From Geosiphon pyriformis uo1 (taxonomy: Eukaryota; Fungi; Glomeromycota), in NCBI GenBank assembly GCA_016748015.1, contig JAAOMT010000040.1, forward strand, positions 310,001 to 374,000: a stretch of DNA of 64,000 bases. The letters are read 5' to 3'. The notes under the pieces are model-generated. The model was not told the DNA's origin. It worked only from the letters and a program-made list of their open reading frames with translations, and did no database searches. Positions 11,158-48,281 of the stretch are shown one piece after another. A program made the position numbers and the translations under genes. How positions within the stretch are numbered: the first letter of the stretch is position 1; each line of letters starts with the position of its first letter.

Positions 11158-11159
11158 TT

Positions 11160-11176: not shown

Positions 11177-11219
11177 TATAATCTTACAGAGAACACCACC
11201 AACCATAATCATCTAAACA

Positions 11220-17357: not shown

Positions 17358-17387
17358 AAACATTTCAACCCAAAAATATAATAAAAG

Positions 17388-18763: not shown

Positions 18764-18772
18764 AATCAAACA

Positions 18773-19361
18773 ATAAAAGAGTATATAAAAACACAGTATA
18801 CATGACAAAGGCAACCAAGAAAAAAAATGGAAATACCAAATCATATTTACATTATAGCTCAACAATTATTCCAGGCCTTAAGTCAACAACTTTAAGGCAT
18901 AGAAATTATCGTTAACAACCAAACAATTTGCTATCAAAACACCAAAAAAAAGACAAAGAATACACCATATTAGCAGTTACCAAAAAAAATTGGAAGCAAT
19001 GGACAGAACAACTTCCAATATCATACTGTTACTACCAGTTAGATTGAAAGTTAAATATTCAAGAGTTGTATATCAACAAATCCAAGAAGATATTTAACCA
19101 AAACATAATACAACAAATTGAAGAATTTATTGGGAAAAAGACAAACTCAACACTACATATGAGAACAATTTACTGACTGCACAATATATTTCAGAACTAT
19201 CCAGAAATACTGTTATACTCTAACATAGAAATCATAACCATTAACCAATGGGGAAAAATGTACAAGTAGAAAACATAAAAAATAAAGTCAAACAAACAAT
19301 ACTAGAAAAAGAAGTATTAAAGCTAATTCAGAATGAAGATTTTGATGGAGCTCAATATTAA
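18773..19361 (+). pseudogene. B ORF3, unknown function
   Basis: Reconstructed QQLFQAL..EIIVNNQTI and YYQLD*KL..MRTIY*LHNIF align with D ORF 32787-33233; ends DFDGAQY* at the PPT. Confidence 0.7.
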
Positions 19362-19375
19362 AAAAGAGGAGATAA

Positions 19376-20236
19376 TATTACTCATAAAAAGAAAAACAGA
19401 TATAGGGAGAATAGTAGACCAATGAATGAATAGTATGTAGCACATGAGCATATTGCTCAGCAATATAGAGCAATAATAGAAATTATGACATATTGCTCAG
19501 CAATATAGAGCAATATCAGAAAACACAGCACATTGCTCAGCAATATGGAACAATGTTAGAAAATTAGAGCACATTGCTCAAAAAATCATAGCACATTGCT
19601 TAAGAATGTAAACGATCTTATAGAACATTAATTATGTATATATAGCAGTAGTGTTAAAAATAGAAAGATAAGAATCTTTTAGTTAGAAATCTTCCATCCA
19701 CAAATATTAAATAAATAAATCATTTACTATCCAAATCCACTCTCCACTATCAACACTTTATGTTGATAGTAATTGATATTTAACTATGCTAGAACAATAG
19801 CTCTTGATCACAGCTATTGACAAGATACTAATGTGCATATTGCCTTGGCTCATTTCTTTATTTTCTTTTATTTCTTTCTTTCTTTGATTTTTACTGTCAT
19901 ATACTAACTGATTAAGGATTAAAGTGCTGAGTAATTGATATCATAGATAGTCTGGTAAAAGACCCAAAAATAAGGGTAAAATTATATATATATTAACGGA
20001 TAGCTTACCAGAAGGGCACAACTGCCAGAATAAACCAGTCACCAAACTGAAAACAGAAATTGGAAACACAACTCACCAACCAACTACATCATCATTGAAT
20101 CTCTGTTCATTATACAAAAAACTCAACTCTAAAATCTTCAGATATAACTAACATACTAGTATTACCAGCATTGTTAAGATATTGAGCACCAAGTTATTGT
20201 TATTTGATTTGAGACTCCAAATAATCATTTGTAACA
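19376..20236 (+). repeat. 3' LTR of B
   Basis: Preceded by PPT AAAAAAGAGGAGATAA; ends TGTAACA. Confidence 0.95.
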
Positions 20237-20299
20237 CCACCAAAAATTATCTACTATTTAATTAAAATAAACACCAAAACACATTAACACCTAATATAT

Positions 20300-20917
20300 T
20301 GTTACGGGTTGGAGTAACAAGCTAATGGATAGCAAGAGAGAACAGGATTGTAGGGTGATAGAAATAATCAAAGAGAATTCAACTTTAAAGAGCGAATTAA
20401 ATGAATATGGATTCAATGTGCAAGATTAGTCTCATAAAATATCTCAGTCGCTATTCTTTTTAAAGGTAACTGGGGAATCTGAAGGTAGAGGGATAGTCTG
20501 TACTGTTAACAATTGATAACTGCTGGTATAATTCTATGCCTCATGTCAGCACTTTTAGAATTCAATATCAGGTATCAACTTGTGTTCTTCAGTCACATTT
20601 ATTTAAATAATCTTCAAATACTACAATTATATATGTCAGGAAAAGGCCAACAAGTAATTTTTTATCCTAAGATGTTCGGATACTTGAAGATAGGGAAAGA
20701 GAAATTAGCAATAAGAGAGTGATTGAGATGAAAGTTGTTATTTTTATTTATTTGATTCTTGTCTGAGAGATGATTTTCTACAACTAAGAGACTCATTGCT
20801 TATATAGCTAATGAAAGTGGTCAATGATCACTATCTAAAAATAGAGTGACTAATTATATAACATCAGTGACTAATACATGTGATAACTAATAAAAATTAT
20901 GGGTTTCAACCATAACA
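20300..20917 (-). repeat. 3' LTR of C
   Basis: TGTTACGGG...CCATAACA; direct repeat of 27252-27905 lacking 36 bp. Confidence 0.95.
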
Positions 20918-21542
20918 TTATCTTCTCCAAAAAGATTGAGCTCTGGCAAAATCAAGCTATTTATAGGGTATTCTAATTGAAGGTTTTTGTCTAACTCAAA
21001 ACTAACTAGTTTGTTGAAGTTTTTTGTGGATAAAATATATAGTACTTGAGGCGAAATAAGCTTTGTATCCAAGAGACCAAATCTTTGTATAAGAGTTTTG
21101 GCTCTTCTTGCAATGGTCAAAACTCTTGGAACATCTAAACATATAATGCCCAAAATTTCACTTGTATCTCTGAAGTTGTTTTTTTTATGAGCTTCATTTC
21201 TTCTATGATTTCACCAAGACAACCATAGAGTTCTAGTTGCCTTTTATATGACAAGTTTTTGTCTATGAGCAAGATTTTCTTAATCGTTTTTCCAATTGTC
21301 ATGGAAGGTGTAAGTATTGCTGCTGTTATGCTTTCCAGCAAATACTTATCCATTTTGCTACCAATTTTTTCTCTTCTGGTAGTAATTTTCTTTGGTCTAA
21401 TAACAGTATGTGTTCTACTGTTATTAGTTATAGTGGTTTGTTTTCCAATAGTCAGAGTAGCATTTGGATAATTTTTGATCCAGTACTCATGGAGAGTGTA
21501 GAAAGCGTTTTGAATGTTTTGATTTAGAAAATAATTGTTCAT
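20887..21542 (-). pseudogene. C ORF3, unknown function (frameshifted near 21150)
   Basis: ORFs 21135-21638 and 20887-21153. LYGCLGE..IARRAKTLI..LYILSTKNFNKL parallels the ORF3 pattern of B, D and E. Confidence 0.65.
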
Positions 21543-21583
21543 GTTGATTGAAGATACCTCTGTTTTGGGAATGGTGCATTTAT

Positions 21584-22897: not shown

Positions 22898-22962
22898 TAT
22901 TGTGTTTGTTTGTGGGGGAGTTACAAATAATTAAGTTGGTTTGGTTTGAGAGAGTTTTACTA

Positions 22963-25655
22963 TCACTGGATGGTAAGTCTGGAGAGAGCATCAGCATTTT
23001 GATGATTAGCTCCTTTGTGGTGTTGAATGTCATAGTTGAATTCATTCAAGTGGAGTATTTAGCAAGTTATCCATTTATGTTCCAGGTTTTTTTTGTTGCA
23101 TAGCCAAACCAAAGCTTGGTGATCTGTTACCACCAAAAATTTCACACCCTTAAGATATTTGTCCCAGTAGCTGGTAGCCCAAACTACTGCTAAGCATTCT
23201 TGCTCAGTAACTGAGTAGTTCCTTTCTGCTGGTGTGAGAGTTCTACTGGCATATGCTACGGTGTGTTCTTTGTTATCTTCATCTTTTTGGGAAAGAACAG
23301 CACCAAGTCCATAGCCAGATGTATCAGTATGGAGGATAAAAGGTTGATTCAGATTAGGTTGTATGAAGATGAGTTTTGTAACCAGTTTTTCCTTCAGAAT
23401 TTCAAATGCTTTTTGTTGATGAGTGCCCCAGTGATAATTGAAGTTTTTCCTAAGTAGCTGATTGAAAGAAACAGCAATTTTGGAGAAATTCTTGACAAAC
23501 TTGTGATAATAAGAGGCCAAACCAAGAAAAAAGTGTAGTTTATGAACATTCATTGGTTGTCTAATGTTTTGAACTTTTTCAATTTTGGCTGGATCAGGGA
23601 AGATTCCATCTTTTGTAATAAAATGGCCAAAGAACTGGGTGGATTGACATCCAAAAAATAATTTGATTGGATTGATCTTGAGGCCAGCATTTCTAAGGAG
23701 GTCAAAAACCTTTTGCAAATGTTCAAGGTGTTCATCCCAGGTTTTTGAGTATACCATTATGTCGTCCAAGTAAACTAGAACAAAGTTTTTTTTTACTGAT
23801 TCAAATACTTTGTCTATTAAGTGTTGAAAGGTGGGAGGAGCATTTGTGAGACCAAAAAGCATGACTGTGAATTCGTAGGTGCTATACTTGGTGATGAAAG
23901 CAGTTTTCTTTCTGCTTTCTGAATCCATCTCTACTTGCCAGAATCCAGCAGTTAAGTCAATGGTTGAAAAGAAAGTGGCACCATGGAATTGGTCTAGCAT
24001 TGCATCAATCTTGGGAAGTGGGTACATGTTTCTTTCAGTAATAGCATTTAATTGGCAATAGTCAACACAAAAGCATAGGGTTCTTCCTTTCTTAAATACC
24101 ACTACAACTGGGAATGCCCATTCATTCTTGGTTTCTTATATGAATCCAAGGTTTTTTATTTGGGTTATTTTCTTTTTGATAAACTCATCATTGTGCTGGT
24201 TAAATTAATAGGGCTTCAAATGGATGAGGCGAGTTTTTCTGGTGATGATGGTGTGTTGTATCACATGTGTATGTCCAGGAGATTTACTTTCTTTTGAGAT
24301 AACTGGGCTGTTTCTAGCCAGCAGATTTTCAATGTTTATCTTTCTTTCTTCTGGAGAGAGTTCTCTTTGTTCTACAACCAATGATTGGATTTCAGGTGGT
24401 TCGTTTTCAAAGGACTTTTGGACTTCTTTTATTTCCTCATGGAGTATCAAGCTGATTGGTTCTCAATCTTTGTAATAGATTAAGCAGAACATGCATTCAT
24501 TGCTAGGAGAATACAATGGTTTGTTGCACCAGCACCAGGCACAAGAACCATGCCACCAATAACTGTATTTGGCTTTCTTGTCTGGCTTTCTGTCAAAGGT
24601 TCTTCTAAGCATGTCATAATAAGGCCAGCAAATCAGCTTGCCATTGACAATGATTCCTTTTTTATCTGCCTTGACATTATCCAGTGGTTTGCCATTGCTG
24701 GTAAAGATGGTATAAGCGAGTTCAGCAGTTTCTTCTTGTTCTTTTTGTTTTTCTTCTTCTTCACTTTCTTCATCATTTGATTCATCTGATTCATTTTCTT
24801 TTGGGCTCTGCTTGGGTACTGGGGGAGTTGTTCAATGGTGACATTTAACCACAATGGGTTTCTCACCACATCTGATGATTAGTTCACAAAGTTCATAATC
24901 AAGCAAAGCTTTTGCTTTCTTGAGCCATTCATTGCCAACAATGATAGTGTATTTTTTTGCTTTAGATACTTTCATATCAGTTTCAATGCTGATGCCATTG
25001 ATGCGAACAGGAATAGCTTTGGCTATGCCAAGCCCTTTTTTTTATTACCATGCACATTGATCATTGGTCGTGTGAATGGTTCATTAATTTTTCTGCCAAT
25101 TGTTTCAAGAAAGTGTTTAGCAATAACACTAACAGATGATCCACTGTCTAGGATCAAATCAATAAAGTAGCCAGCCATTTGGGCTTTGCAAATTAGAGAA
25201 ATGACATTGCTATTGTCAGCAAGTCCAGCTTGGCGAGGGTGTTTGTTGGTTTTGGGTGTCTTTTTCTTTGGAATCAAAGATTTGTGAAGATTTTTTCTGA
25301 ATTGTGGATGGGTCATCAATTGGCCAAAGGTTATATATGCTGGGGTTTCTATGAGGTCTTTGACAACAGAATAGGGGCCAGATTTTTGTACTATTTCTGG
25401 GGGTTCTAACTTTGGAGGGTTCTTGAAAACTTTGGCTTTTGGGGGCTCATTGTTGTCAGCAGTTGATGTAGAAGCTTTATTGGGGTCCAGAATGAAATCA
25501 ACTTTGGCTTTTTTCTTCTTTCTTGTGAATTCAGAGAAGTTGATTGCTAGTTTATCTATGTCATGATTATCATCAGTTAAGTTAAAAGTGTAAAAGAGGT
25601 TTTCTTCTGGTTGGCTTGCACTCTCACCCTTTGGAGGTGCATCTACCAGTTTAAA
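22963..25655 (-). pseudogene. pol: C pol: protease-RT-RNase H
   Basis: LILDSGSS, LVYLDDIMVYS, HTDTSGYGLGAVLSQ, VTDHQAL, NADALSR followed by TGA-TAG-TAA. Confidence 0.93.
25617..25655 (-). promoter_or_regulatory. -1 ribosomal frameshift signal (U UUA AAC, 7-nt spacer, stem-loop) between gag and pol
   Basis: The heptamer is in gag phase (CCT TTA AAC TGG TAG) and the -1 frame opens FKLVDAPPKGESASQPEEN into the protease frame. Hairpin TGCAC-CTC..GAG-A-GTGCA. The same heptamer is at A 440-446. Confidence 0.78.
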
Positions 25656-25657
25656 GG

Positions 25658-27199
25658 CTAATAAACAGTGGCTTCAACTAAGGGATCCTCTCCAAAGAAA
25701 TTGATGTTGGCATGATTAGGTCTTTGATTGGAGACATTGTTGTTGTTGTTGGGTCTGTTGTTTTGGTTGTCATTTTTTCTGGGAGCTGGAGGAGGCAGTA
25801 AAAGATTGTTATAATCTCTTGAATAATGTCCTGTTAATCCACAATAATAGCACACAGGTGGGCCATGATTTTGCTGTCTTTGATAGGGAGGTTGCTGGGG
25901 CTGGTTAAAACGAGGTTCATATCTAGGTCTTGGTGGTTGCTGATTATCTCTGACTGCTTGTGCCAAAGGTTCTAATAACCGGGCAAGATTAGCTGTGAGT
26001 CTATCAATTAATTGTTCATTTGGATCTTGAGTTTGGACAGCAAAAGAAACAGCAGCCATTTGAAGGGCAGTAGCCATGACAGGAGCAGAAGCAAAAACTG
26101 AAAGTGTAGATCCCAAATGTATTCTTTGGTTGTCTTCAATTCATTGGGCAAGTTCAATGGCCATGTCCATTGTAAGGTTGTCTTTTAGAGCCAAGAGAGG
26201 CCAAAAAGCATAAAATAAATCGGTTTTCAATCCTTTTGTGAAGGAATGAATCTTTTGTTCTTCTGTCCAGTTTCTCCCAGAGTCTACACATTTGATTAGC
26301 TTTCTAATAGCTTTGGCATATTTAGTCACTACTTCTTCAGGGCCTTGAGTTCTTCTTTCCAATTCCATGCACCATTTGGATATTAATATTGGGGTTCTGA
26401 ACTTGGCCTCAAATTGGGTAGTGAAAGAGGTATTTTCTTCTTCAGCATTGATTAGTGTCCATCTGATTATTCTGTGTTGAGCATTGGCATCTGTTTCTTG
26501 TGAGAACCAGATAGCAGGAAAGCCTTGGAGGTAGCCACCAACGATTTGAAACTTGTATTTTTCATCATACTGGTTGGCTGTGACAGCTCTCTCAAAATCA
26601 TCTAACCATTCAATTGGATCTTGTGCATTACCTCTAAATAATAGTAGTGAGATATTGTTTCTTCTTCTTAGAGCAATTTGTATATCTTGGAGGGTGGCCA
26701 GAATGTTTGCTTGCATGGAGTCATTAGCCATTGGTTCAGGAGTAACTGTTTGTATAGATGAGTCTGATTTGTTTGATAAAAAGTCAAAAACAGGGGCAGT
26801 TTGGTAGCTTTTTTTTTCTGTTTCAAAGGGAGTTTCAGTTGCTTAATGGGCAGCAATCCAAATGTGGATTTAATGATTCAGATATTTGAAATCAGGGGGC
26901 TGTTGTTCAAAAGTTGCAGAATATAAGAGCTGATTGATACTGTTGTTTCTTTCTTCAAAGTTATTTTCAAAATAAGCTTGGTTAAAGTAATAGGTTGTAT
27001 AAGTTGTGTAGGTTTCAGCTAAATGCTTGTTCAGAAACCAGTTCCAAAAGTCTTGGAATTGTCTACTGGATTGTTTTTCAATGGGAAAGCAAATCAAGCA
27101 GGAGGACAAAGAATTGAGTTCAATAAAGTCTAAATCGTTTTTGTTGTGTGCTTTAAAGTGTTCTTCTGATTGTTGTGGCAAGTATGAATAATCATCCAT
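25658..27199 (-). pseudogene. gag: C gag
   Basis: ORFs 26870-27199, 26141-26731 and 25658-26116 share one frame; DPIEWLDDFE capsid-like segment and CYYCGLTGHYSRDY knuckle. Confidence 0.9.
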
Positions 27200-27228
27200 A
27201 CAATAAAAAACAAAGTGGATTTTGACAA

Positions 27229-27245
27229 CCTTACAGGGAGCACCA
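27229..27245 (-). promoter_or_regulatory. Primer-binding site of C
   Basis: TGGTGCTCCCTGTAAGG after a TAAAAG spacer. Confidence 0.82.
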
Positions 27246-27251
27246 CTTTTA

Positions 27252-27905
27252 TGTTATGGGTTGGAGTAACAAGTTAACGGATAGCAAGGGAGAACAGAAT
27301 TGTAGAGTAATGGGAATAATCAAAGGGAATTCAACTTCAAAGAGTGAATTAAATGAGTATGGATTCAATGTGTGAGATCAGTCTCATAAAATATCTCAGT
27401 CGCTATTCTTTTCAAAGATAACTGGGGAATTTGAAGGTAGAGGGATAGTCTGTATTGTTAACAATTGATAACTGCTGGTATAATTCTATGCCTCATGTCG
27501 GTGCTCTTAGAATTCAATATTAGGTATCAACTTGTGCTCTTCAGTCATGTTTATTCAAATAATCTTCAAATACTACAATTATATACGTCAGGAAAAGGCC
27601 AACAAGTAATCTTTTATCCTAAGATGTTCGGATACTTGAAGGTAGGAAAAGGGAAATTAGTGATAAGAGAGTAATTGAAATAAAAGTTGTTATTTTTATT
27701 TATTTGATTCTTGTCTAAGAGATGATTTTCTACAGTTAAGAGACTCATTGCTTGTATAGCTAATGAAAGTGGTCAATGACCAGGTCAACAACTAGGTCAA
27801 TAATTAGGTCAATGATCACTATCTAAAAATAAAGTGGCTAATTATATGACATTAGTGACTAATACATGTGATAACTAATAAAAATTATGAGTTTCAACCA
27901 TAACA
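27252..27905 (-). repeat. 5' LTR of C
   Basis: TGTTATGGG...CCATAACA with the PBS adjacent. Confidence 0.95.
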
Positions 27906-27909
27906 ATAT

Positions 27910-29299: not shown

Positions 29300-30023
29300 C
29301 AAAATCAAAAATAGTTAGAAAAATCAGAAACATTAAACTATTAAAGAAATTCTTTTAAATTTTAATATATAAAAATAATTTATTTTAGTATTTATTTATT
29401 ATAAATATATTTGAAAATATTATAAATACTTCTCAACTTTTATTTCAGGTACTACAAGAAAATAATTTCCTATTAGAAATTACTTTTAATAATTTTTAAA
29501 TATTATATAGAAAAAAAAATTCAGTTATATAAAAAAATAAGTCAAACACAAATCATTTTAACTCTTATAGCAAGAAACAAAAAATACTAACACATTAATT
29601 GATAAAATCATGGAAAAATTCCAGCTTCTAAAAAGTATAATATTCAAAAAAAAAACTTAATTGCTTTTTTTTGCTATATATACTTCATAATAATCACACA
29701 ATTAGACTTTTAAATAATCTATATTAAAAAAAGTAGCAAAAAAATTGACAAACAAAACTCCAGAAGTTTGAAGAACTAATTAGAAAAAACAATTTTAAGC
29801 ACTGTTTTAGGGCAGCATACTAACTCTATGTGTTGTTTCAACATATAACAAAAGTATTATTAACAAACAAAATAAATATGCTTATTTTTAATGAAATTGA
29901 AAGACTTACTAATAATAAATTTCAGAACTTGCAAGAATAAATAGTTCAAACAAATATACAGACTTTTATGTTAGATGTTAACATTGGAAAAATGCACATC
30001 AATTTTAATAGAGCTTAATCTTA
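29300..30023 (+). pseudogene. E ORF3 remnant
   Basis: SQLLFQVLQE..LEITFNN and FRAAY*LYVLF..EIERLTNNKFQNL align with D ORF3. The start is approximate. Confidence 0.68.
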
Positions 30024-30035
30024 AGAGAAGAATAA

Positions 30036-31322
30036 TATTATTTAATAGAAATTAACAAAAATCAAAAGTAATAATATTATAATATATTAACCAATTATTA
30101 AATAATAGTATAAATAGCACAGATTAATGGATAAAATTAGAAAACATAATATATATACAATAGTGTACAAAATGTGCACAAATGTATCTAATTTAACATA
30201 ATTACAAACAAGTAAGCCAAAAAGCATTTACAATCAAACAAAAGACCCAATAGCTTAGCAATTACTTACTAATTAGTTAGAATAAACACAATTATATATA
30301 ATTCGAAATATGTATATATATAATAACTTTTTAACTAAAAAAAAAAACAGACAAAAAAAAAGAATAATAAAGAACAAAAAATCAATTAAACAAAATAAAA
30401 ATGAAAAAAAAGTGGAAGAATTAAATTATAATTTCAAAAAAAACTAAACAATATGTCTTTTTGTATTATTTACTAATATTGAGATCAGTAAAATTGGAAA
30501 TTTTTCTCTTTTATAATCTGGCTCTCTTTTACAAATAACCAAAAAGACTATTATTTTTCTTTCATTATTATTTTTCTATTGAAAAAAAACAACAGTAAAA
30601 ACATCTAATATGTCAACAAAAACATGAATAAAATCCAAACTTAACAAGATTGAAAACACATTAAAAGATATTAAATACATAAAATTACTTAAAAATTACT
30701 TGTAATATCTTGGTTAAAATTAACAGTTGACTTAAAAATCTAGAATAAGCTTTCTATATCTTTGAAAAAATAATTTTTGATTAAAATTATTTTATGAATA
30801 CTAATTTTGTTGAATTTTACTTTTTATTTTAATTCTCTTTGAATTTGTTAGAAATATAATACTGCTTTATTATAAATAAAAAAATACAAACATCTGATAT
30901 TAGTGCAAAATAAAAAAATATTTCTATAAGAGTCTTAAGAAAAAACACAATTAGAAGTGTAAAGATATGACAAAAATTCTCCTTAGAAGATTAGTATAAT
31001 AATAACTATTAACAACAATATTAACAAAAACATTATATTATATACTAAATTCAATAACAAAAACACTTACCAGAGGAAATTATCTAATATCTGCTAAGAA
31101 ATTAAGAAAACTTACCAAGCTAACTTTCAAATTTTTAAATAAAAAAATAGTAGTAATATATTAAACAGAAATTCAACATAAATCAAAAATAACATTAATT
31201 AAGATTAATATACTTATTTTCACATCAAAATTAAATAATTCATTATATTATCACTTAATCTAAAAAGCTATAGAAATTAATCATAGTATAACTACTAAAA
31301 GAAAAGAAAAACACCTATAATA
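30036..31322 (+). repeat. 3' LTR of E
   Basis: Direct repeat of 2718-3971, preceded by the PPT. Confidence 0.9.
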
Positions 31323-31781
31323 ATATATTTTAAGAACAGCATAATAGCCTATAATTTGGCTATTGTAAAGAACAGAAGTCCATACATTTTAACACTAATG
31401 TTTGTATTTACAACTGGAAAGTAAGCAGCCATCTTATTAGTAACTTTAACAAAACTAGTACATTTTAAAAAACTATCTATATAAACTTTAATAGAACTAA
31501 ACCAAATCTCAAGCAAGCTTTCTTGTATATTAAAGAATTTTTTAGATTTCAAAACATTTAACCCAGATAATTTACCAGCTTTTGCAAAATTAACTACCAA
31601 AGAACTCTTATTATTTAAAAATTTAGATGCCACTTAAACCAATTAGACACAAAGTCTCTTAGATCCAATTTTTTTTATTAATAAGATATTTTCCAGTTTA
31701 TCACATTTTTTTTTGGTTCAAAAGTCTGTTACTAAATACAATTTTAAACTGCTTCAAAGAAAAAGCAGAGCTATAATACAG
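31323..31781 (-). pseudogene. LINE-1 ORF2 fragment (RNase H N-terminal half) between E and D
   Basis: ORF 31349-31633 IKVYIDSFLK..AAYF..GLLFFTIAKL matches LSVYIDGSVK..AVAFF..GLMLSTLVEL of LINE-2. Confidence 0.82.
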
Positions 31782-32752
31782 TGTTACTGGAGGTTTTTGG
31801 TCTCTTTTCTTAAATGTTGTTAATGTTGACTTGCTGTGAATTCATGTTCTCAAGAAGTAGTTGGACTTCCAGTAACTGAATTTATCTTTAAATTATCTCT
31901 TATAATTTGAACTGCTGGACTTATAAGTAGAATGGCCATTTCTGTACCAGTTGCTTGTGTAGTTATATTGTAGTAAACATCAACTCTTTTCCAAGAATTG
32001 CTCATCTGGAAGCTTACTAAAATATGTAGTTACTTTGCTATGAAAGTTAACTCTTCTACAGAAATCTTGTCTGTAGGCTACTTTAATGATTATAATAAGA
32101 AAAGAAAAAGAAAAATAAAAGAAATGTAAAAGAAATAGAATTTTATCAAGAAAAACGTTTTCTATCCAGACCTGGAGTCACTAACAATTTACTGAAATTG
32201 GTAGCTAATCAATTTCGAAATGTTAGTTGTATTTAAGGAAATTTCAAGTATAATAATTTAAGAATTTGGTTTTTGAATATTTAATTTTTATTTGAATGTA
32301 TAAAAAGTAATTTGTTTTGATTAAGATATCTAAAATAAGATACTATGTTAAAATATTGTAAGAAGATACATTTTTTTGAAGAAAAAAGCTCTTCTTTTAT
32401 ACAACTTGTTATAGTACTAGTCTTTGAACTTGCATTTTTTTCTTTGCTACAATTTGAGTAAACTAAAGATACATTTCGGCAAACTACAAATTATTTCACT
32501 GAACTATTAATTATTTCGGCCAATTTTTATTAATTTCGGCGAATTTTGACTATGTTAAATGGTTCAGGATATTGTGTAATTTGATCATCTTACTTTCTAT
32601 AGTACAAATTGGATTATTGATTGAGTAATAATATTTGATAATTTGATTAAATAATAAGTGGTAATCGAAATGATAATAATATATGCTAATTAATAATAGA
32701 AATTATGAGAGTAATTTTATGTTAATTAATAGCTAAAATTTTACTGGTAACA
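31782..32752 (-). repeat. 3' LTR of D
   Basis: TGTTACTGG...CTGGTAACA; repeat of 40587-41557. Confidence 0.95.
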
Positions 32753-32763
32753 TAATTTCCTTT

Positions 32764-33450
32764 TTAAGACTGAGCTTCATCAAAGTTCAAGCACTATCTG
32801 TGATGTTAAAATAGTGGTCCAAAATAATTGAAGTAATTTGGTCTGAAAATTGTTGAAATTTCAGTTCTGTAAGCTTTTTAATATATTGAATCTTTATTGA
32901 ATAAAGTATTGAATTTTGTAGAACGTTTTTACAAGTGTTGAATAACTCATAGAGTCTAAATGCTGCTCTAAGTTTGTAGCAAGTGTTTGTTAATCCAGCT
33001 GCTGTCTTGAATTCATTGTGAATTTGTTTTTGTATAGTCTCAGAAGTAATGTTGGTTGCTTCAAGTTCTAGTTTCTGTTTATAAAGTGTTTTTCCAATAT
33101 GAAAATATTTATATATAAAGGTATGTTCATTGTTCTGTTCATTGAGAAATAGTAGAAGTTTTTGTTGAATGGTGGCATTTGGTGGAATGTCAATAGAGAC
33201 AATTAAAAAGTTTTCTTTTAATGCTTGCTTCAAAAGTTCTGGTAATTGGATTCCAGAGTGATCTTTTGTTTTTTTTATAGAAGTGATAATTTTGAGAATT
33301 TTTTACTACTGGTATTGTGGTTTTTTTCTGAATGTAATTAATTTGACTTCTATTAATCATTATGGATAAGTTAAAAAGTGTTTTCAAGACTAACATTAAT
33401 TTTTGGAATATTTGTTGAATATTTCAGGGAATAATCATGATAAAAAAATT
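32764..33450 (-). pseudogene. D ORF3, unknown function (best-preserved copy)
   Basis: ORFs 33190-33396 and 32787-33233: YKYFHIGKTL..LRAAFRLYELF..YIKKLTELKFQQF. The start is uncertain. Confidence 0.75.
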
Positions 33451-33605
33451 GACTAATTAATAAAAAAAATTTGAAAAAGAATAAAGAAAATTATTTTTGG
33501 GTATAGAATTTTTATTTGTTTTTGGGTTTGAATGTTTTTTGTAATTATTTACTATTTTTGTTTTATATCTTGTGTATTTTAAAGGGATTATTAAAAAATG
33601 TTAAA

Positions 33606-34987
33606 TTAAATGTTCAAGTTTGGTTGTTGTTCTATTATAACTATTGGTTCTAAATTTTGGAAAATATTTTCAGGACTAATTAAAAAAAAATGTGTACCAA
33701 TTTGTGGAATTAATGGTTTAGACTTGTTTCTGGAATGATAGCATTTCAATCTATCTCCATGTGCAACTTTTGCTAGTACTTTGTCATTAAGTCTTAACTT
33801 GTATGATATATTGCCTAGAATTTCGTAAATATAAAATGGTCCATCCCATTTATGTTCAAATTTTCCACTCTATTGTTTTTCAGTCTTAGTTCTGTGTAAG
33901 AGAACTTTATTTCCAACTTTAAATTCATTGATAACTGGTGGCAGTTTATTGTCATGTTTTTTTTTGTAGGGCTTGAGAATGTTTAATATGAGTGGCTGCT
34001 ATGTGTTTCTTTTCTTTCAATATACTAAAAAGAGTGTAAGCTCTTCTTTGAAGTGTTTCTTGAAAGTTTTTTTTATTGATTGGTTGCACTGGGTATGTTT
34101 CCACTGTGAAATTAATTGGTAATATTGCTGTTCTTTTATAAGTAAAATCAAATAGTGTGTTTTGTAGTATTTTGTTTTAGTGTTCTGTATGTTAGTAACA
34201 CTGATAAAATAAAAATATCCCATTCCTGTTCAAAATCTGTTGAGACTTTGGCTAAAGATTTACACAATGTTCTGTTAAAACATTCTACAAGTCCATTTGT
34301 TTGAGGGTAATAAAATGATAATAGAGGTCTTTTGACATTGAATTGTTCACAAATTTTTTGTATCAAGTTGTTCACAAAATGTGTTTTTTGATTAGATAAG
34401 AGTTCAATTGGGCATCTATGTCTACAAATAATGTCTTCATAGATAAAATTTGCTATTGATTTTGCATCTGCTCTTTGGATGGCTTTAGCTTCAGATTATT
34501 TGGTGAAATAATCTACTGCAACTGTAATATAACGATTTTCTTGGGTTGTGATAGGTAATGGTCTGACTAAATCAATTTCAACTCTGTTAAAAAGTTGTTC
34601 AACTTTGATTGGATTTAAAGATTCTGTAGGGCAAGTTTTTTCTCTTCTTTGACAATTATCACAAGATTCTATATATTGTCGGATGTCTTTTTGCATGTGG
34701 GGCCAAAAATAATGTTCAAGAGTTCTTTGAATTGTTTTATCTTTTTCCAAGTGTGCTAAAAATGGATTTGTGTGCATGTTGTATAGGATTGTTTTTTTTT
34801 AATTTTTCTGTACTAATCTGAGTGATTGGTTTGGGTTTTTGCAATTTTTGTAATAGATTTTGTTATGATGTATAAAATATTGTTTGAATTGGTATTGTAA
34901 TCAATGTTTTTTACTTGGAGACCAATTTTCTGGCATGGTAAGAGTCTCCAAATAGTTTTTAAGATTGTTGTAAATTCTGGGATCTAT
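33606..34987 (-). pseudogene. int: D integrase as a separate ORF (start ATG decayed to ATA)
   Basis: (M)DPRIYNNLKNYLE; ORFs 34496-34777 (H..H..CDNC) and 34148-34375 (YPQTNGLVE); ends NLEPIVIIEQQPNLNI*. Confidence 0.88.
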
Positions 34988-35042
34988 TGTTGTTTTGTTG
35001 TTTTGTTAATAGTAGTAAGTTGTAGTGGATTTGTTGATGGTG

Positions 35043-38000
35043 TTAATCTTGTCTTATTTTTGAGAGACTATTAACATTGGTGTGTAGTTTTTCTGGTTTG
35101 TGGTGTACAATATATTTGTAGTCGGCTAAGAAATCATTCTATCAAAACTGTTTGGCACTTTGTTCAGTTTTCTTTTTATTGAGCCATTTAAGACCAATAT
35201 TGTCAGTTATGATATCAAATTCTTTTTCATTCTTCAAGTATTGCTAAAAGTGTTTAAGAGCCCAAATAACTGCAGCAGCTTTTAATTCAGTTAAGCCATA
35301 TTTGAGTTCTGTTGGTTTAAGTATTCTACTGACATAGACAATAACTTGTTCCTGGCCATTTTCATCCAATTGTGATAGAATGGCACCAAATGCTATGTGT
35401 GAAGCATTAGTGGCTAGTTGAAATCATTTGTTAAAGTCTAGGTAAGCAAGAACTGGGGTTGTTGTTAATTTTGTTTTGAGAGTTTCAAAAGTTTTTTGTT
35501 GTTTTCAGTTTATTGGTATGGCACGTTTTTGTTGGTAAAATAATTAAGTGGTTTGGCAATTTCTGAGAATCCTTTTATGAATTTTTGATAGTAAGAGGCT
35601 AATTCTACAAATCTTTATAGCTCTGTGATATTTTTGGGAGTTTGAAAGTTTTTGACAGCATTGATTGTTCTAGAATTTGGTTTGATTCCATCTTTACTGA
35701 CAATGTGTCCAAGAAAAATTAAACTTGTTTTTCCAAAGTGACATTTCTCAATGTTTAACTTCAATCCTATTTTCCATAATTGTTGAAAAACTTCTCATAG
35801 GTGGATAAAATAAGCTTCAAAACTTGGTGAGTATATATTAGTGTTATCCAAATAGACAACTATTGATTGCTATAAGAGTCTTTCATATACAACATCCATG
35901 AGTTGTTGGAATATTGCTGGTGTATTGCAAAGTTCAAAAGACATAACATTGAACTCATAATTTCCTTCTTGAGTAGTAAATGCTGTTTTAGATCAATCTT
36001 TTAGGTTTATTTTGACTTGCCAGTATCCACTTTTTAAGTCTAAAGTTGAGAAAAACTTGGCTTTTCTTAGAGCATCTAGCATGTTATCAATTCTTGGAAG
36101 AAGATAGGTATCTCCAATTGTCACACTGTTCAGTTGGTAATAGTTAACACAAAATCTGATTTTTCTATTTTTTTTTAACAAGAACTACTGGTAAGGCCCA
36201 AGAACTTCTTGATGGTTAAATCAATTCATTATTGAGTATTCTCTAAACTTCTTCTCTAATAAATTGGTGGCTGGCAGATGGTACTTGATAAGCTTGTTAA
36301 TGTTTTGGTAAAGCATCTCCTGTGTAGATCTGATGTTGAACAATTTTAGTTTTTCCAAGGTCATTGTTATCTTTTGCAAATATGTTAGCGAATTCAGCTA
36401 TTAGCTATTTCAATTGTCTTTGTTGTTAAGATTCTAAGAGACCTATGTTAATTCAAGAAAGTTTTTCTTCCAAAAGATGGTAGTTTTCAATAATAAAAAT
36501 AATGTTTGGATTTGGGAGTAGTGTATGTTTTATAATTTCGATAAAATTAGAGACAATTTAAGAGTTTTTATCTTGGAAAATATTGCTGTATATAATTCCA
36601 ATCTCTAATTTATTCAATAAAACAATAGGGTAATTATTGGGGTTGTAAAATATAACTTAAAATTTTTTTATTTCTTTAAGAATATAAACATTTGGAATTA
36701 AGATTTCATGCTTTAAACAGATTTGTTCATTGGATTCAAAGATTTGTTGAGTAGTAATGAGTTTTAAGCAAATGTAAATTTCTTGATGTTTTCTAAAAAG
36801 TGAAATAGTAATTGGTTGGGGAAGTTGAAGAATCTGGTAAGATTCATTCTGTGTATTGAAAACTATATTTACTGGCACTGTAAATCATCCAGTTAAACCA
36901 AAACTTTGAGTTCCTCTTTTACTTTTTCCCAATTGTTCTCTGTTGTTAACTAATTGTAAATCCAAAATGTTAATTAAGAGTAGGTAAATTGCTTGGGCAA
37001 TTTTTTTAGCATGTTCAATTCTGACTGGTTTGTCTGTTTCATTCTGTAACATGATGGTAATATCTCCAGTATATTTTGCATCTATGATTCCTTCTTTAAT
37101 ATTGATTTTTTTGTTTGCCAATGATGATTGGAAAGCAATTTGTATTATTGCTCCTGGTGGTATTTTAAAAGCAATTTTGAGATTAATATTGGTTAAGGAT
37201 TTTGGTTAAAAAACCAAAGTATCTTTGCCAGAATATCTTAGGTCATATTCTGTATTAATTTCATGGGCTTTTTTTGGTTTTATTCTTTTTCCATTGTTGT
37301 CAAAGTATTTGAGTTGTATAACAGGCTGGTTTTTAATAAGATAAATTGGAGTTGTTGTACTTTCTTCTTCTGTTTTATGTTCTCCAAATTCAATTTCTTC
37401 TTGGTCATTTTTACTGGATAAGAAGATACTAAGAGCATAGCATTCTGAACACCATTTGTCATCACAAGACATAATGTATTCTTTACACAATTGAATGTTC
37501 ATCTGCTCTAATTGTTGAATTTGAGCTTTTTGGATTGGGTAAGTATGACTTGCAATTTGATGGTATGTTTCTACTTCATCTTCATAATTAAATCTAATTA
37601 ATTCCATTGTGTATTCAATATACTCAGCTTCTTTCATTTGGTGGACATTTTCTTGTGTGATTCCATTAATTAAAGTCATTGCTAAGTCAAAGATCATTTC
37701 AGCATTATAAGGATAATAGTAGAGTTTATTGAGAGTGCTGTTATATGCTGCATCAAATAGTATTCTTTTTCTGACTTTTTCTAATATTGATAGAGCATAT
37801 TGGCAGGTTTAATCACATACTTTTTTTCTCATTGCAATATCAATCCAATTGCATTTTTTTGGTAGCATATCTCCACATGTGAGACAAGAAGTGTTGTCCT
37901 ATTTTCTATTTCTTTTGGGATATTTAAATCGTTCTCTATGATATGCTTTATAATAGTAACAGGTGCAAGTTTCATATTCTTCTTCTGAAGAAATACATGC

Positions 38001-40540
38001 TCTTATTGATGAAAGTTTTTTGTTGCAATCTTTGCATTTAAGTAGGATGTTAATTCAAGAGCCATAAAGGTTTTAGTAATTGGTAGTTTTTTCTCCTCTT
38101 CAAATTCAAATACTGGAGCTTTTTTAGATTTTTTATTAAAAGTACTATAGTTAACAGGTACTCTAGTATATTGTTCTTGATATGAAATCTTCAATTCTTG
38201 TTTCTCAATTTAAATTTGCATTGGCCTTGAAAAGCCAATTATTTCCGACAAGAGCCTGGTATTGTGGTATATTTATAACTAAAACTTTGACTAGAATGGT
38301 AATTCCATCAATAGTGAATGAGAAATTGTTAATTTCTCCTACTGGTGTCTTTTTTATATCATTTGCTATAACAATTACAGTTTGGGCTGGTCTGTCAACA
38401 GTTCTTTAAAGTTGTTGTATTAATTGGTAGATAATAATATTTCTAGCTAATCTACTGTCTAAGATTAACCAAATTGGTTTTCTTTCAACTTCAGTTTCAG
38501 TATACATTGCTGTAATTGCTTTTTGTTTATTGATTGCTGTATTGCTAAGCAAGAATGGTAATTCATTGGCTTCAAATTTAAATGGAAATATATTTGAGAG
38601 ATTGGCATTTTAAGCAATTTGAGCTGGTAGAATAGTATTGTTGGAAGGATTTGATCTTGGTGCTGTAACTTTATCTTCAGAAAGTACAGTTTATTAAAAA
38701 TCCGATTCTTTAGGCATTGTAAAATAACTGAGTTGAGTATGGTAGTGATTGGGTCTTTGCTGACCAGAATTTCGAGAAACCAATTAGTTGTTTGAATTGA
38801 TTTTGTTGTTATTGTTCTGAAATTGATTTTGAGATGCGAATTGGTTATGTTGAACCAATCTTCGGGCTGGTATTTGATATTGTTGTATAGGTGGTTATTG
38901 ATACTGTTGAATTGATAGAGGTTGTTAGTATTGTTGCTATGGAGCAGATTAATAGTAATTAGTTTGCTGCTGGGATCTTGAGAAATAGTAGGCTGGTGGT
39001 GGAGACTAATAATAAGATTGCTGTATTGAAGAGTAATGTTGATTACTTCTGTTTTGCTGGTTTCTTTGTAGCTTTTTGCAGTCTTGTTTCCAATGTTCTG
39101 AAATTTCACAATAATGACAACTTTGGTTTTAACTGTTTGATGAAAATGGGTAGTTGATTTGGTTTTATTGTTGTGGTGGCTGATATCTTTGTGGTTGTTG
39201 CTGTTATTGTTGGTTGGTAAAATAGTTCTCAACCTTTTTTGTAAGTTGGTCAATTTTTTTTTCAGCTGCTGAGCTGGTTTTTTCAATAGCAAGATTTACA
39301 AGTTTAATATGATTTGCTTCTTCTATTGCCATTTCATAGTTCTTTGCATGTCTAATGGCTGTTGCTAAGTCTTCTGGAGCATGTAAACAAACTTTTTTGA
39401 TTAACTTGTCTTCAATCCTGCTATAAACTGATCTAAAATCTGGACATTGAAATAGTATTCATTGGTTTCCAATTGTCAAATTTATTGAAAAAGTTTGTTG
39501 AATCTCTCAAGATAGGTCATAACAGTTTCAGATGTTTCTTGTTTGATATTTCAAAAGCAATTGCAGAGAGTAATAAAGGTGTTGTTGTTAATAAATTGTT
39601 GTAAAAAAGCATCTTTGAATGCTTGCCAGTTTTCAAATGGTTTTTCTAAGTTTTCAAACTATTCTTCTGCAGTTTTTTGAAAAAAGTATGGAATTGCTTT
39701 GAGCATTTTTGCTGCATTCCAACTATTTGTGTTTTCTGCTTTTTGAATTTTGTCAAGCTATTTTTGAGAGCTGGTATCATTATCTTCACCAGTAAATTCT
39801 AAGATTTTTACAATATAAGCAGTTGCTATTTTTTCTTTATTTTCTGTAATTTCTTCTGGTTTTGATTCAGTTTCTTCACTTTTCAGGTTTTCTGAATGAT
39901 TGCTTTTGTTTTCTTGTAAGTAATCAAAAAGATTGGTGCTAGTTGATATTAGTTCCTGCTGTTGAATAAGATTTCTAGGTAACTAAAAATTTTCTGGTCT
40001 GAAGAAATAGTTAAATAGTGAATTTAGTGTTTGTGGTCAAGCAAGTAAAATTGGAAATAGTGTAATAGAAAGTGGTAATTTGACACTGGTTCTTTGTTCA
40101 GGTGTTTGTAAGTGTTTGGCAGTTATCTTTGGTATCTTTGGAGTATTTTAGAATAGTACTTGAGTGTTGTTTTTGTTTGTCTTTGTTGTTTGTTTTTGTC
40201 TCAGATTCAAAGTCAATAGAGTATTTAGACTGTACTAGATATGTTTTTTTACAATACTTGATAATGTTAAAATTAAGTTCTTGAAAGTAGGTGACAAGTG
40301 TTTTATTGTTAAGGTCTTCAGTTTCTAACTGTGAATAGTGTACTAAATTATTGTAGAAATTGCTTCTAACTTTTGAAATGTTGTAATTTCCAAGAAAATA
40401 ATTGTTGATATGGTTTTCAATATACTAATAAAGTGTTTTTTTAACAATTTCAATTCCGTCTGGAATGTTGAATTTTTGTTTGCAATAGGTGTAAATTGAC
40501 TGATAATACTTTAGAGTTGTTGTGTCTGGTGTGGTCACTA
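35043..40540 (-). pseudogene. gag-pol: D gag-PR-Cys-rich-dUTPase-RT-RNase H
   Basis: LILDS protease ~38460; dUTPase EYDLRY/GIIDAKYTG/KIAQAI/RGTQSFGLTG at 36885-37320; RT LDLKSGYWQV and YLDNTNIY; ends SLSKIRQD*. Confidence 0.88.
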
Positions 40541-40586
40541 CTTTGAAGTTGTTATTGCTGTGTTATTTCTGTAGGAGAGCACCAAA

Positions 40587-41557
40587 TATTACCAGAAATT
40601 TTTGGTCTTTTTTCTTGAATGTTGTTAATATTAACTTGCTGTGAATTCACATTCTTAGGAAGTAGTTGGACCTCTAGTAACTGAATTTATCTTCAAATTA
40701 TCTCCTATAATTTGAACTGCTGGGCTTATAAGTAAAATGGCCAATTTTGTGCCAATTGCTTATATAGTTATATTGTAGTAAATGTCAACTCTTTTCCAGG
40801 AATTGCTTGTCTAGAAGCTTACTAAAAATGTGTAGTTACTTTGCTGTGAAAGTCAACTCTTTTACAGGAATCTCGTCTATAGACTACTCTAATGATTATA
40901 ATAAGAAAAGAAAAATAAAAATAAAAGAAATGTAAAAGAAATAGAATTTTATTAAAAGAAACGTTTTCTATTCAGGCCTGAAATTACTAACAATTTACTG
41001 AAATTGGTAGCTAATCAATTTTGAAATATTAGTTGTGTTTGAGGGAATTTCAAATGTAATAATTTAAGAATTTGGTTTTTGAATATTTAATTTTTATTTG
41101 AATATGTAAAAGGTAATTTGTTCTAATTAAGATATTTAAAGTGAGATACTATGTTAAGATACTGTGAAAAGATACATTTTCTTAAAGAGAGAAGCTTTTT
41201 TTTATACAACTTGTTGTAATACTAGTCTTTGAACTTGCACTTTTTTTTTTGCTACAATTTGGGTAAATTAAAGATATATTTCAGCAAACTACAAGTTATT
41301 TCACTAAACTATTGATTATTTCGGCGAATTTTTATTAATTTCGGCGAATTTTGACTATGTTAAATGGTTCAGGATATTGTGTAATTCGATCATCTTACTT
41401 TCTATAATACAAATCGGATTATTAATTAAGTAATGATATTTGATAATTTGATTAAATAATAAGTGATAATTGAAATAATAATAATATATGCTAATTAATA
41501 ATAGGAATTATGAGAGTAATTTCATGCTAATTAATAGCTAAAATTCTATTGGTAACA
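40587..41557 (-). repeat. 5' LTR of D
   Basis: Repeat of 31782-32752; PBS 2 nt downstream on the minus strand. Confidence 0.95.
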
Positions 41558-44500
41558 ACAGAAATTTTTCCAAAATATTTGATATTAAAAACCTATTAAG
41601 ATTATGAAATGTACAAGACAAATTGTTTACCAAGAATAAATTATTGTTTAAAAAAATCTTTACCACCTTAGCCAAAAAATTGTTCACTAGACTAACATAC
41701 AACTTGACAAAAAACTGCAAAGAATTTAAAAAAGACCACCCTAGAACTTGCAAACCAAAAACTTATGTTTAAACAAATGCCCAAGAATATTTAATACATT
41801 AGAAAATGTAATCAATAATGCCATTTTTCTTTCAGACTGTACTTGCTTAAAGAGCTTTAAATTATACAAAGATAGATAATACAAAGTTTTATTAAGAAAG
41901 TTTTGTAACAAATCAGTCTTGGCCTTAAAATTTTTTCTGATTATTACATCTTATTTATAATACACACTTAATAAAATAAAACTAAACTATAATTAATAAT
42001 TAATAATAAACTATAAGACAATTAATACCAAATAAGAAAACTGTTTATCCATAATTACTCTTAGTACTACATTAAAAAAAACTTAATATTAGCATAAGCT
42101 TAAATTATATTAGGCTTTAAAAAATTCTCAGTTGACAAAAAAATTCTCAAGTATTTGTGCAATTTACCTCTTTTAACAATTGAAATTGGCAAATCATGAT
42201 TATTAATAAAGCATTTTTAATATTTTGATTAAAAGAAATACTTATTGTCTTCTTATTATTAATTAAAATATTATTAACATCAAAAAATTTATTAACAATA
42301 TTCAAAATATATTGTGTAGAAGTTTGACTACTTTTAATCTAAATTGTATCATTAACAAAAATACTGGTAGCAAAAAATGAAGTTTTTCTTTTAATAGCTT
42401 CAATTTTGTTAGTTTTGGCTATAAACTTAGTATTAATTCAATATTCACACAAGTGTTTATGTCTCTTAACTTTGCACAAAAATGAATTGTAAAAAATTAT
42501 TCAAAAGAAAAAAGAAATAATCTTATTTTGATACAATTTATTATGCACTTTGTAATTATCTAAAAGTTCAAAATTAGTTATTATTCTATTGATCTACTTT
42601 TTATATATGTTGTCAAAAAACTTAATAAATTAATTGCATATCTTAATGTATTTTAAGCTAACTTTTAAATAATGTCATCCTACTAAATCATAAGTTTTGT
42701 ACATATCTTACAAAACCAACCAAAACTCTTTATTTTTTTTAGTGTATTTTTAACAACCAATTTAATGGCAAAAATAGAAGATTGAGTTAAGATACTTTTC
42801 AATACCAAAAAGTTATTATCATAAAAAACATCAAATTTGCTATATGCTAAGAATATTTGATTAAAAAAAATCTTAAATAAAATTTTTTTAACTGTTTCAA
42901 TTAGTGCAATAGACTAAATATTTATTTAAAATACTATCTCACTTATAAGATTTAGAGATTATTGAAATCTATGTTCTCTTTCAAAAAGCCAAAACTATAC
43001 CCAAAGTTAAATACAAATTCAACAACTTCAAAAAGCATTTTAACACTTTATTATTACAATATTTCTATAGTTTATTTGAAATCTCTAATAACTTAACAGT
43101 CTTGCTACTTGGCAAATCATTAATAATCAAAGTTAACTTTTCCATATTAATCTTTTTTATCACATCAAAAAAGGCATTATTATTTACATACTTTAAAAAT
43201 ATATATTAATAAGACCAAAATTCAAGTATTTTTAGGAATACTGATTACTTTTTCATCTATTTTTCTATAATTTCGTTAATTCTAAGCTTTACCTTATTAA
43301 ACTTTACTACCAATTCATTTTCAACTATCAGATAATCCAAAACAACTTTGCAAAAAGACCATTTTAAAATATTTTTTATTATTTATTCTTTGTTAGAGCA
43401 AAAATTTTCTATATATTGTTTAATTGCTTTTTTAATAGTTGTATTCTTAAATGCCTTTAATTTATAATACTTAGATTTTTAATACTTTTTTCTAATCATT
43501 AACAAATGTTTAATTATATCTATTAACTTTATATTATCTTGAATTATACTAACAATCTTAGATATTTTAACACTATCAATAGTTAACCAAACTTTGATAA
43601 GTTATTTAAATTTCAACAGATCTTTAGAATTTTATTTCTTTATAATCTTAGCAATGAGGAGTTCTAATTTGAAAAATTTTGATGACTGTCTGTTTTTTAA
43701 ACAATTATACTCATTATACCAATGTCTAAAAAACACCATATTGGCAAACTATATTAAAGCTTTTTTTAAAATTTCTTATATTGTATTTAAATTACTATAA
43801 TCTTTTACTTTTTTAAACATATTTAATATTGCCAACAATTCAGCAAAAAAGTGCTTTTTAAATTGCATCTACTTGATTTTATTAGCATCTTTTATTTTGA
43901 ATTTCTATTGATTTTATTAGCTTGCTTATAAATACTATTAAGACAAATATTCAGAAGACCATTCAAACCAACTAAAACTAAGATTGTCTTATAATCTGTA
44001 TCAAAAAATTCCAATACAATATCAACTTTATGACTTGTAATTGCAGATATTAGATTTTTATTTACAAATATAAAATTTAATACTTTTTCAACACCCTTAG
44101 AATTTCTTTAAGTAAAAGTTTTAATCAATAGATGCTTATTAAATACATTAACCAAACTTAAATCCAAACAAAACTTGAAACTTGCACTTTTTTTGAATCT
44201 ATTCTTATTAAAATTTTTACTTAAGACCACAAAAGTACTAGAATTAACTGCTTTATTAATAAAAAAAATTGATTTTTAACACTTGTTTAAATCTAATCTT
44301 AGCAGAAGCACCAGCATATAATTTTAAAATTATCACTGAAAATTTATTTTTAAATAAAAAATAAACCAAAATAATTATGTTCAAAATTTTATTTATCTTT
44401 AAAATATACCAAATTAAAAAATTGTTTATAATTATAGTTACTTTAATATTAAAAAAATTTTTGTCCAAATTAAACATAAAGATTTGTACTTTTTTAAACT

Positions 44501-46663: not shown

Positions 46664-48281
46664 GTTTTTTAATTTTATAGAATTATTGTTTTAATATTAT
46701 TAATAATACTATTAATATTAATATAAAATTGGTTAAATTTTAATATAATAAGTATGAATTCATAAAATATATAAAATAATATAATTTAAATAGATTTATT
46801 TTTGAAATAATTATAGATTTTAAATATTAGATTATTAATTATAAAAGTTATTTAATAAAATAAAAACAAAATTTATCTTTAATTAAACTTGTTTTTTTTC
46901 TGTTTTTAATATTTTTGTAAATTTTTATAAATAAAATTTCTAATATTTCTGAAATTTCTGAAATTTTTAATATTTTTGCTAAAATTTTTAAAATTTTTAG
47001 CATTTTAAATTATTAAAATCTTTATTAACATTTTTAAAATATTTGATATTATATATTTTAATAATTAATATTATGTTATTAGCTATTTATATTATATTTT
47101 TTTCTTATTTTTTTTGTTTTATTTTATGAATAATAATATATATTTTTTTAATATTAAACTTTAGTAAAATTTTTTGAATTTTGTTTGAATAAGTTTAAGT
47201 ATTTTTTTTTATAATATTAAAAATTTTTGTTCTTAGTTTTTTAAACTGTAAATTAATTATTTTTTTAATTGGTTTATTATTAATGTTTTTATAATTAAGT
47301 ATAATAATATTTTATTATATTTGTAAAAAATTGCATATAATTAATATATTATTTTTAAGTAGATTATTAAATTGTTTTATTTATTGTATTATTTTTTTGT
47401 TAAATATTTGTTTGGATTTATTAATATACAATATCTATTATTTTAAGTAATAATTAAAAATTGTTTTTTCCAACCTTTTAAATAACTGTTAATGGATTTT
47501 TAAAAGTTTTTTTTTATTTTTTTAACAATTCTTTTTATATAGTTATCTATTTGTATTTATAATTTATTATATAAAGCTATTTAAATTGTTTTTTTTTAAA
47601 ATGTTTTTATAGCAAATTTTTTGGCTATTAACTATTAGTTTTATGTTTAATTTTTTTTTAAATACTTAAAATAATTATTAAGTAATTAAGTAAATATTAT
47701 TTATAATTTTTATTTTATTGGTTATTTTGTTATATTTTAATAGTATTTATATATATATTTTTTAATTTTATAATATATTAGCTTTAATAATAATAATTGG
47801 TTTCAGATCTTGTAGAATTTTATTTGGTTTAATCAATATTTTTTGTGTTTTTAATTGTAATGTATTAGATAGTAATAATAACTTAATATAATTTTAATCA
47901 ATTATTATGTTTTGTTTTAATTAAAACTTTGTTTTTTAATTATAATTATATGTTCTATTTTCAAGTATTTTTTAATATAACTTATTTTGGATTTAATTTT
48001 TTATTTTATTGTTTTTTTACTTTAATATAATATAATAATATTTTGTTTTTAATTTTTAATTTAACTAATTTATTTAACAATTAATTATTATAAATTTTTT
48101 TGTTTTTTTTATAATATTTCAATATAATTAATTGCTTTTTTAATGTTTTTTTTTTTTATTATCATTTAACGAGTGAGATCCAAACACTACCTAGAACTAT
48201 ACATCAAAGAAATGATCTAAACTAAGCATGAATTATGCACTGTCTACATGTGACCAGCCACTTGAGCCAGTCAGGACAACA

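Follow-up and report, generated by a model that had tools for sequence, protein, structure and literature searches.

A conserved third gene behind the integrase of Ty3/gypsy retrotransposons of Geosiphon pyriformis

Retrotransposons of the fungus Geosiphon pyriformis carry a sense frame, ORF3, between the integrase and the polypurine tract (PPT), which raises the question of whether this frame is a gene and, if so, what its product does. In the initial annotation of a 64,000-nucleotide stretch of the genome (hereafter the window) it was described as coding for an accessory protein that could bind the LTR, serve in reinitiation in the manner of caulimovirus TAV or counteract silencing. The analysis presented here shows that the sense frame behind the integrase is a real third gene of these Ty3/gypsy retrotransposons. 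It codes for a conserved accessory protein family that occupies a known architectural slot and is apparently new to description.

Position of ORF3 in the elements of the window

The window consists of AT-rich, CpG-depleted DNA (CpG observed/expected of 0.16) made of decayed Ty3/gypsy elements, and this depletion suggests cytosine methylation in the host. The elements display the LTRs, primer-binding site (PBS), PPT and target-site duplication of Ty3/gypsy as well as the gene order gag-PR-RT-RH-IN, and the RT-RNase H of the related metagenome locus L001 has Ty3 as its closest solved structure (E 6e-47). With Pfam, no chromodomain was detected on ORF3 or on the pieces of integrase scanned from C and L001, and the elements are accordingly not classed as chromoviruses. 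PBS-like sequences beginning with TGGT are found a few bases past the 5' LTRs, at 40570-40586, 27235-27251 and 11155-11170. In the four elements examined (B, C, D and L001) a stop closes the RT-RNase H frame just past an ADALSR-like motif; a short A/C-rich spacer follows, and then the integrase with an ATG of its own (ATA in D). Pol is thus split in all four.

In element D, ORF3 lies in sense orientation between integrase and PPT, on the minus strand of the window, and its ATG at 33438 is separated from the integrase stop by ~190 bases. The slot had been drawn as 32764-33450; the sense ORF stands, but its true end (32733) is found 31 bases beyond 32764, seven codons inside the 3' LTR. In D, C, B and L001 alike, it reads across the PPT and stops 7-17 codons inside U3. 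Kept in sense by many copies in the interval from pol to the 3' LTR, it belongs to the aORF-3S class. The D copy is decayed, with a stop at codon 5, another at 32787-32789 and a shift of frame within a run of A near 33275, while its open part is 84% identical to the Geosiphon protein P0001. None of the five copies in the 64-kb window (B, C, D, E and F) is intact; C displays one frameshift, and B, E and F many stops. The coordinates are given in Table 1.

Table 1. Features of the window elements and of metagenome locus L001 (positions in the window unless stated otherwise).
Feature	Position	Strand	Remark
ORF3 of element D	32733..33438	-	~235 codons; decayed; through PPT into U3
Conserved helical core of D ORF3, predicted HTH-like pair	32790..33140	-	approximate limits
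PPT of D with short DNA motif before it	32753..32778	-	codes for the EL(S/N)LxEE tail
3' LTR of D	31782..32752	-	three ATTTCGG repeats in U3
5' LTR of D	40587..41557	-	90% identical to 3' LTR
Integrase of D	33620..34990	-	approximate limits; separate frame after RNase H stop; GPY/F SH3-like tail; no chromodomain seen
ORF3 homologue of element B	18827..19449	+	decayed; through PPT into U3; HMM iE 6e-21
ORF3 homologue in E	29401..30023	+	decayed; HMM iE 5e-15
ORF3 slot of F	47150..47750	-	B-like; heavily decayed; HMM iE 0.003, weak
ORF3 slot of element C	20887..21542	-	probable remote homologue; through PPT; database relatives 218 aa
Three palindromes in U3 of B	19450..19544	.	core ATTGCTCAGCAAT; 40-bp spacing; candidate binding sites
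RNase H stop / integrase start sites	D 35040-34990; B 17350-17390; C 22970-22897; L001 772-799		L001 in its own numbering
Target-site duplications, 4 bp	D 31778-41561; C 20296-27909; B 10269-20240		ACAG; ATAT; CTAC/CCAC
Pre-PPT motif sites	32766-32777, 19348, 20932, 30011

In the initial annotation, B, C, D and E had been taken to share a conserved ORF3, with a slot of equal size in F. With HMMs built from database proteins alone, no window sequence being included, this grouping holds for B and E, weakly for F, of which the ORF3 region aligns with that of B at 67% over 587 nt of DNA, and only probably for C. The C family was not detected with an HMM from which C had been left out (median of 0.05 bits over 20 C-family proteins, with shuffles reaching 10.0), and local hhalign of C with the other ORF3s gave a probability of just 0.4-2.5%. 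The global profile alignment of the whole C protein scored 14.8 compared to a maximum of 12.6 in 50 shuffles and is collinear over 210 columns, part of this signal coming from the PPT-encoded tail. On these sequence comparisons, we consider it fairly probable that the C slot is homologous to the other ORF3s. Regarding the shared motifs described at the outset, RAA(F/Y)RLYxLF and IxxLTxxKFQ occur literally in D and E but not in the other window copies.

E probably represents the 3' half of an element that begins near 2713 and was split by the insertions of B and C. The resulting nested stack occupies 2713-31326, its outer element having LTRs at about 2713-3972 and 30031-31326 and having apparently landed in a LINE-like RNase H fragment. 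RNase H (PF00075) is also observed in two related non-LTR-like segments, at 48097-50512 and 61565-63995, the first of which apparently interrupts F. Element D also contains, at about 37206-37808 between protease and RT, a segment which we take to be dUTPase-like from a motif and from PF00692 on the chimeric model P0100.

Relatives of ORF3 and constraint on the frame

With the open part of D ORF3 as query, 189 of 258 candidates matched, and the 120 listed are all from Geosiphon, many of them 221-239 aa long; with the C slot as query, 117 of 139 matched, all from Geosiphon and typically of 218 aa. All named close relatives of the window ORF3 proteins are hypothetical proteins of G. pyriformis, many of them near-full-length. 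When 1.84 billion representatives were searched by profile, 35 matched, and the eight most distant ones, when looked up, were six Geosiphon proteins and two unnamed full-length metagenome proteins showing 27-29% identity to D-family members. A third search (7994 candidates scored) gave 50 matches and added the Geosiphon family H. At least three further sequence groups have ORF3 at 20-30% identity, including metagenome elements with ORF3 after the integrase. Leave-one-family-out HMMs link D, H, J and environmental proteins with scores of 89.6, 55.8, 117 and 74.8 bits, compared to shuffle maxima of 4-9. The earlier proposal of an accessory protein that families with unrelated LTRs have retained is supported. 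Furthermore, with the 189 and 117 matches and most of the 50, several hundred Geosiphon gene models labelled "hypothetical" can be accounted for as genes of transposons. In C-family models, gene predictors splice the 12-bp tandem arrays of C-type LTRs (55206-55335 and 27771-27813 in the window) onto ORF3, which produces a spurious repetitive tail.

At least two metagenome loci were confirmed among 592 candidate stretches. In L001, the stop of RT-RNase H is followed by a separate integrase, 316 bases of spacer, ORF3, the PPT and the start of an LTR, and the ORF3 of this locus, directly behind the integrase, is an intact frame of 230 codons. In L002 the order is integrase tail, a 137-codon frame and then ORF3; this extra sense frame (398-811 of L002) has no Pfam family. 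Moreover, seven of the 50 gene models of the third search splice the SH3 tail of the integrase onto ORF3, showing the adjacency of the two. No ORF3 copy was seen outside an element in the DNA context available (the window, L001 and L002). The ORF3 profile matched none of 401 bacterial genomes, viral contigs contained no ORF3 relatives, and tblastn of ORF3 against phages gave one match at chance level.

ORF3 thus lies behind the integrase in every element with visible context (window, L001 and L002), a position from which it could supply an integration cofactor in trans, binding chromatin or cDNA ends and steering the integrase from the slot of the chromovirus chromodomain. This would suit its location between the GPY/F tail of the integrase and the PPT, the lack of a chromodomain in the scanned integrases and the nesting of the window elements in one another. 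However, such nesting is expected with 41% of LTR sequence (PMC11952901), and we regard a role of this kind as improbable.

Concerning purifying selection, clear signs of constraint were found, while no dN/dS value is claimed because pairwise dS is saturated (2.1-2.2, Nei-Gojobori) and pN between D and L001 falls within the alignment null. The longest frame in 5000 shuffles of L001 was of 145 codons compared to 230 for the real ORF3. Two D subfamilies differ at 16 of 95 positions in the core, whereas outside it, in the linker and the N-terminal part, they differ at 33 of 75 (p=1.5e-4), and among the 50 residues identical between L001 and L002, 23 are written with different codons.

The EL(S/N)LxEE pattern at the end of the protein, present in 98 of the 120 D-family matches listed, results from translating the PPT and the DNA ahead of it. 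In family H this pre-PPT stretch is read otherwise, with a GAQF-like tail in 18 of 48 models and no acidic tail. Since this family does without it, the acidic tail is not needed as protein; it is a by-product of read-through across the PPT, and a function as activation domain was rejected on the same grounds. As DNA, the pre-PPT pattern occurs nine times in the window against a chance mean of 7.75, four of the nine being just before a PPT, and beyond the window it was matched once, in an unrelated phage gene.

One could go further and see in the whole frame no functional gene at all but a side effect of base composition and of the cis sequence before the PPT, given that every window copy is broken and that the PPT dictates the tail, acidic or, from the same stretch in family H, GAQF. 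Nevertheless, the pol genes of the same window copies are equally broken, and the HMM scores across families, the frame of 230 codons open in L001, the core-biased conservation and the confident fold described below make this extremely improbable.

Predicted fold and likeness to known domains

In the predicted layout of the ORF3 protein, a helix and a hairpin at the N-terminus (low confidence) precede a disordered linker, in which a basic stretch was observed in all seven proteins inspected, a helical core and a tail. The core modelled alone with AlphaFold shows seven helices with a pLDDT of 88.8 and a pTM of 0.80, and the helical character suggested at the outset is supported by two models. 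Invariant or near-invariant residues cluster in helix 2, in the turn before helix 4 and in helix 4. In the six proteins tested, the maximum 19-residue Kyte-Doolittle mean ranges from 0.44 to 1.29. With no membrane segment by hydropathy in these six proteins and a soluble helical model, the product is not env-like, in agreement with the first description.

No described domain is significant for ORF3 in Pfam, PHROGs, PDB sequences or Foldseek, consistent with its having been called uncharacterised. Three Foldseek runs against PDB and BFVD gave no match at E<=0.001, the top BFVD row being the uncharacterised A0A6J5P0G3 (E 0.098). In the VIA structural search none of 48,161 chains reached Z>=8, and the best Z of 5.2 lies within the tool's stated background. 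Most of the top VIA rows cover just the first half of the core. Those of the best 50 that span nearly the whole core include Spo0J (Z 4.9, 87 aligned residues, rmsd 4.0), Raf1 (Z 4.3), which we take to be ParB-like, KorB (3.9), ParB (3.8) and SopB (3.7); these ParB/KorB-type natural-chain alignments extend over 87-96 residues with rmsd of 4.0-5.3 Å and sub-significant Z of 3.7-4.9, and the core is likewise spanned by unrelated rows, 8ftu (rmsd 4.7) and 7mwr among them. Resemblances to RGS and TetR were rejected, as VIA gave them no support.

At the sequence level, Pfam leans most to DUF1016_N in ORF3 alignment A1 (in 9 of 61 members, with a best E of 0.0028, below significance), while in alignment A7 an unrelated family (6 of 57) comes ahead of it (5 of 57), and two members scored 14.6 and 12.9 bits, under the gathering cut-off of 32.8 bits (PF17761). 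Bacterial profiles were aligned from 22 DUF1016_N, 14 DUF3102 and 30 ParB domains, and with hhalign these three interlink at 33-88%, the 88% being that of DUF1016_N with ParB-HTH. ORF3 gave null results with ParB and with DUF3102. With DUF1016_N, its local hhalign score is 17.0, in the expected register, compared to a maximum of 16.0 in 40 shuffles and at a probability of only 1.5%, while the global profile score lies within the null. Given that ORF3 links solely to DUF1016_N, at this low probability and above shuffles locally but not globally, the HTH assignment of its core is a lean and not a membership. The core resembles the HTH of ParB, Spo0J, KorB and SopB, as well as DUF1016_N, in being an all-helical domain of similar size, and shares with DUF1016_N the register Y-x-I-G ... 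R-L-Y. Unlike ParB-type and DUF1016_N proteins, ORF3 has no CTPase or nuclease domain and sits in a eukaryotic retroelement. DUF1016_N itself is the N-terminus of YhcG, termed a helical domain of unknown structure (PMC1189080).

An Atlas search with the core placed it nearest to clusters of unnamed Mucoromycota proteins (0.94 and 0.93; 170 and 164 of 256 features), and the search with the whole ORF3 protein was weak. These clusters speak for ORF3 being a captured copy of a helical domain widespread in Glomeromycotina, acting on host proteins or sibling elements and not on the element's own nucleic acid. However, no such proteins appeared in the HMM searches and the clusters may be transposon-derived themselves, so that a capture of this type appears quite unlikely.

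A possible regulator of the LTR and its counterparts

The palindromes of B recur in its 5' LTR at 10349-10441. An excess of palindromes over shuffles is clear in B's two LTRs only, out of nine LTR regions tested, and these are tandem copies, not independent ones. The U3 of D, C and L001 display other short repeats without clear palindrome excess, the repeats differing by family.

We tentatively propose that the ORF3 product binds DNA in the nucleus and regulates the LTR of its own element. The soluble helical protein would likely enter the nucleus, with the basic linker as a putative nuclear signal, and its HTH-like core would likely bind the LTR through a presumed scaffold helix, a G-K-T-N turn and a helix with invariant Asn and Leu-Tyr-x-x-Phe. 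The N-terminal helix and hairpin may be an oligomerising piece and the U3 repeats the putative targets, and once bound to the LTR, ORF3 would regulate transcription or counteract silencing. Among the three functions first considered (LTR binding, TAV-like reinitiation and anti-silencing), an LTR-binding factor fits best because of the weak ParB/KorB-type fold likeness, the basic linker and the family-specific U3 repeats, anti-silencing being a variant of it. Counting against LTR regulation, L002 keeps ORF3 despite little CpG depletion (0.72). In an extended scenario, which we hold to be unlikely as a whole, a split-pol gypsy lineage would have recruited a ParB/KorB-type bacterial HTH protein as a sequence-specific LTR regulator, with protein and U3 repeats co-diverging, as a counterpart of VANC and Tas that helped the LTR expansion of Geosiphon.

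The gene layout alone would favour a TAV-like reading. Indeed, given that RT-RNase H ends in a stop and that the integrase has its own start, the downstream cistrons need a special route, and separate integrase and ORF3 cistrons follow the RNase H stop in all four elements. ORF3 could then be an RNA-binding factor, either for the export of unspliced RNA as CERV or Rev or for the translation of these two cistrons as TAV. CERV is a precedent for an export factor of an LTR element (PMC10309623), and a phage translation repressor family is found at 0.89-0.90 in the Atlas, at the level of a lead. On the other hand, no TAV- or RNA-binding-linked Pfam domain, including viroplasmin, is among the recurrent matches, and the structural leans go to DNA-binding domains. 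Moreover, TAV is much longer than the ORF3 protein. An RNA-binding factor therefore seems somewhat unlikely, and TAV-like reinitiation less likely than LTR regulation.

Extra ORFs in this slot are known, yet almost never with an assigned function, and several gypsy families of G. pyriformis keep ORF3 in a genome of which LTR elements make up 41.2% (PMC11952901). Natural intact versions, a confident fold and obvious candidate sites in one family make the role of a non-env third gene directly testable.

Caulimovirus TAV, foamy virus Tas and lentiviral nef are all accessory regulators of reverse-transcribing elements, and nef overlaps the PPT and U3; they stand beside ORF3 as analogies only. The same applies to CERV of Cer1 (PMC10309623), also an accessory regulator of a reverse-transcribing element; for none of these was a match to ORF3 in domain or fold found. 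The VANC anti-silencing proteins of Arabidopsis VANDAL transposons target family-specific tandem repeats (PMC5735166). As with ORF3, an element-encoded accessory protein goes together with family-specific repeats (candidate targets in the case of ORF3) in a host that methylates cytosine, as presumed here for Geosiphon. Unlike ORF3 elements, VANDALs are plant DNA transposons. Demethylation is a VANC trait, and the likeness is one of description.

As regards ORF3 itself, no description of the protein was found in the freely accessible literature searched, and the parts of PMC3248453 covered contain nothing on such an ORF. The closest counterparts by architecture are the sense additional ORFs (aORF-3S, env-like) that Ty3/gypsy elements carry between pol and their 3' LTR (PMC7264820) and the functionally unassigned "add. 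ORF" shown for fungal Gypsy elements (PMC2864245), among which, on a comparison by description only, ORF3 may have relatives. As far as the portions of these two sources consulted go, ORF3 shares with them the slot, the orientation and the many copies, and differs in belonging to an unnamed helical family without transmembrane segment, in the frame that runs through the PPT into U3 and in the integrase being a separate ORF.
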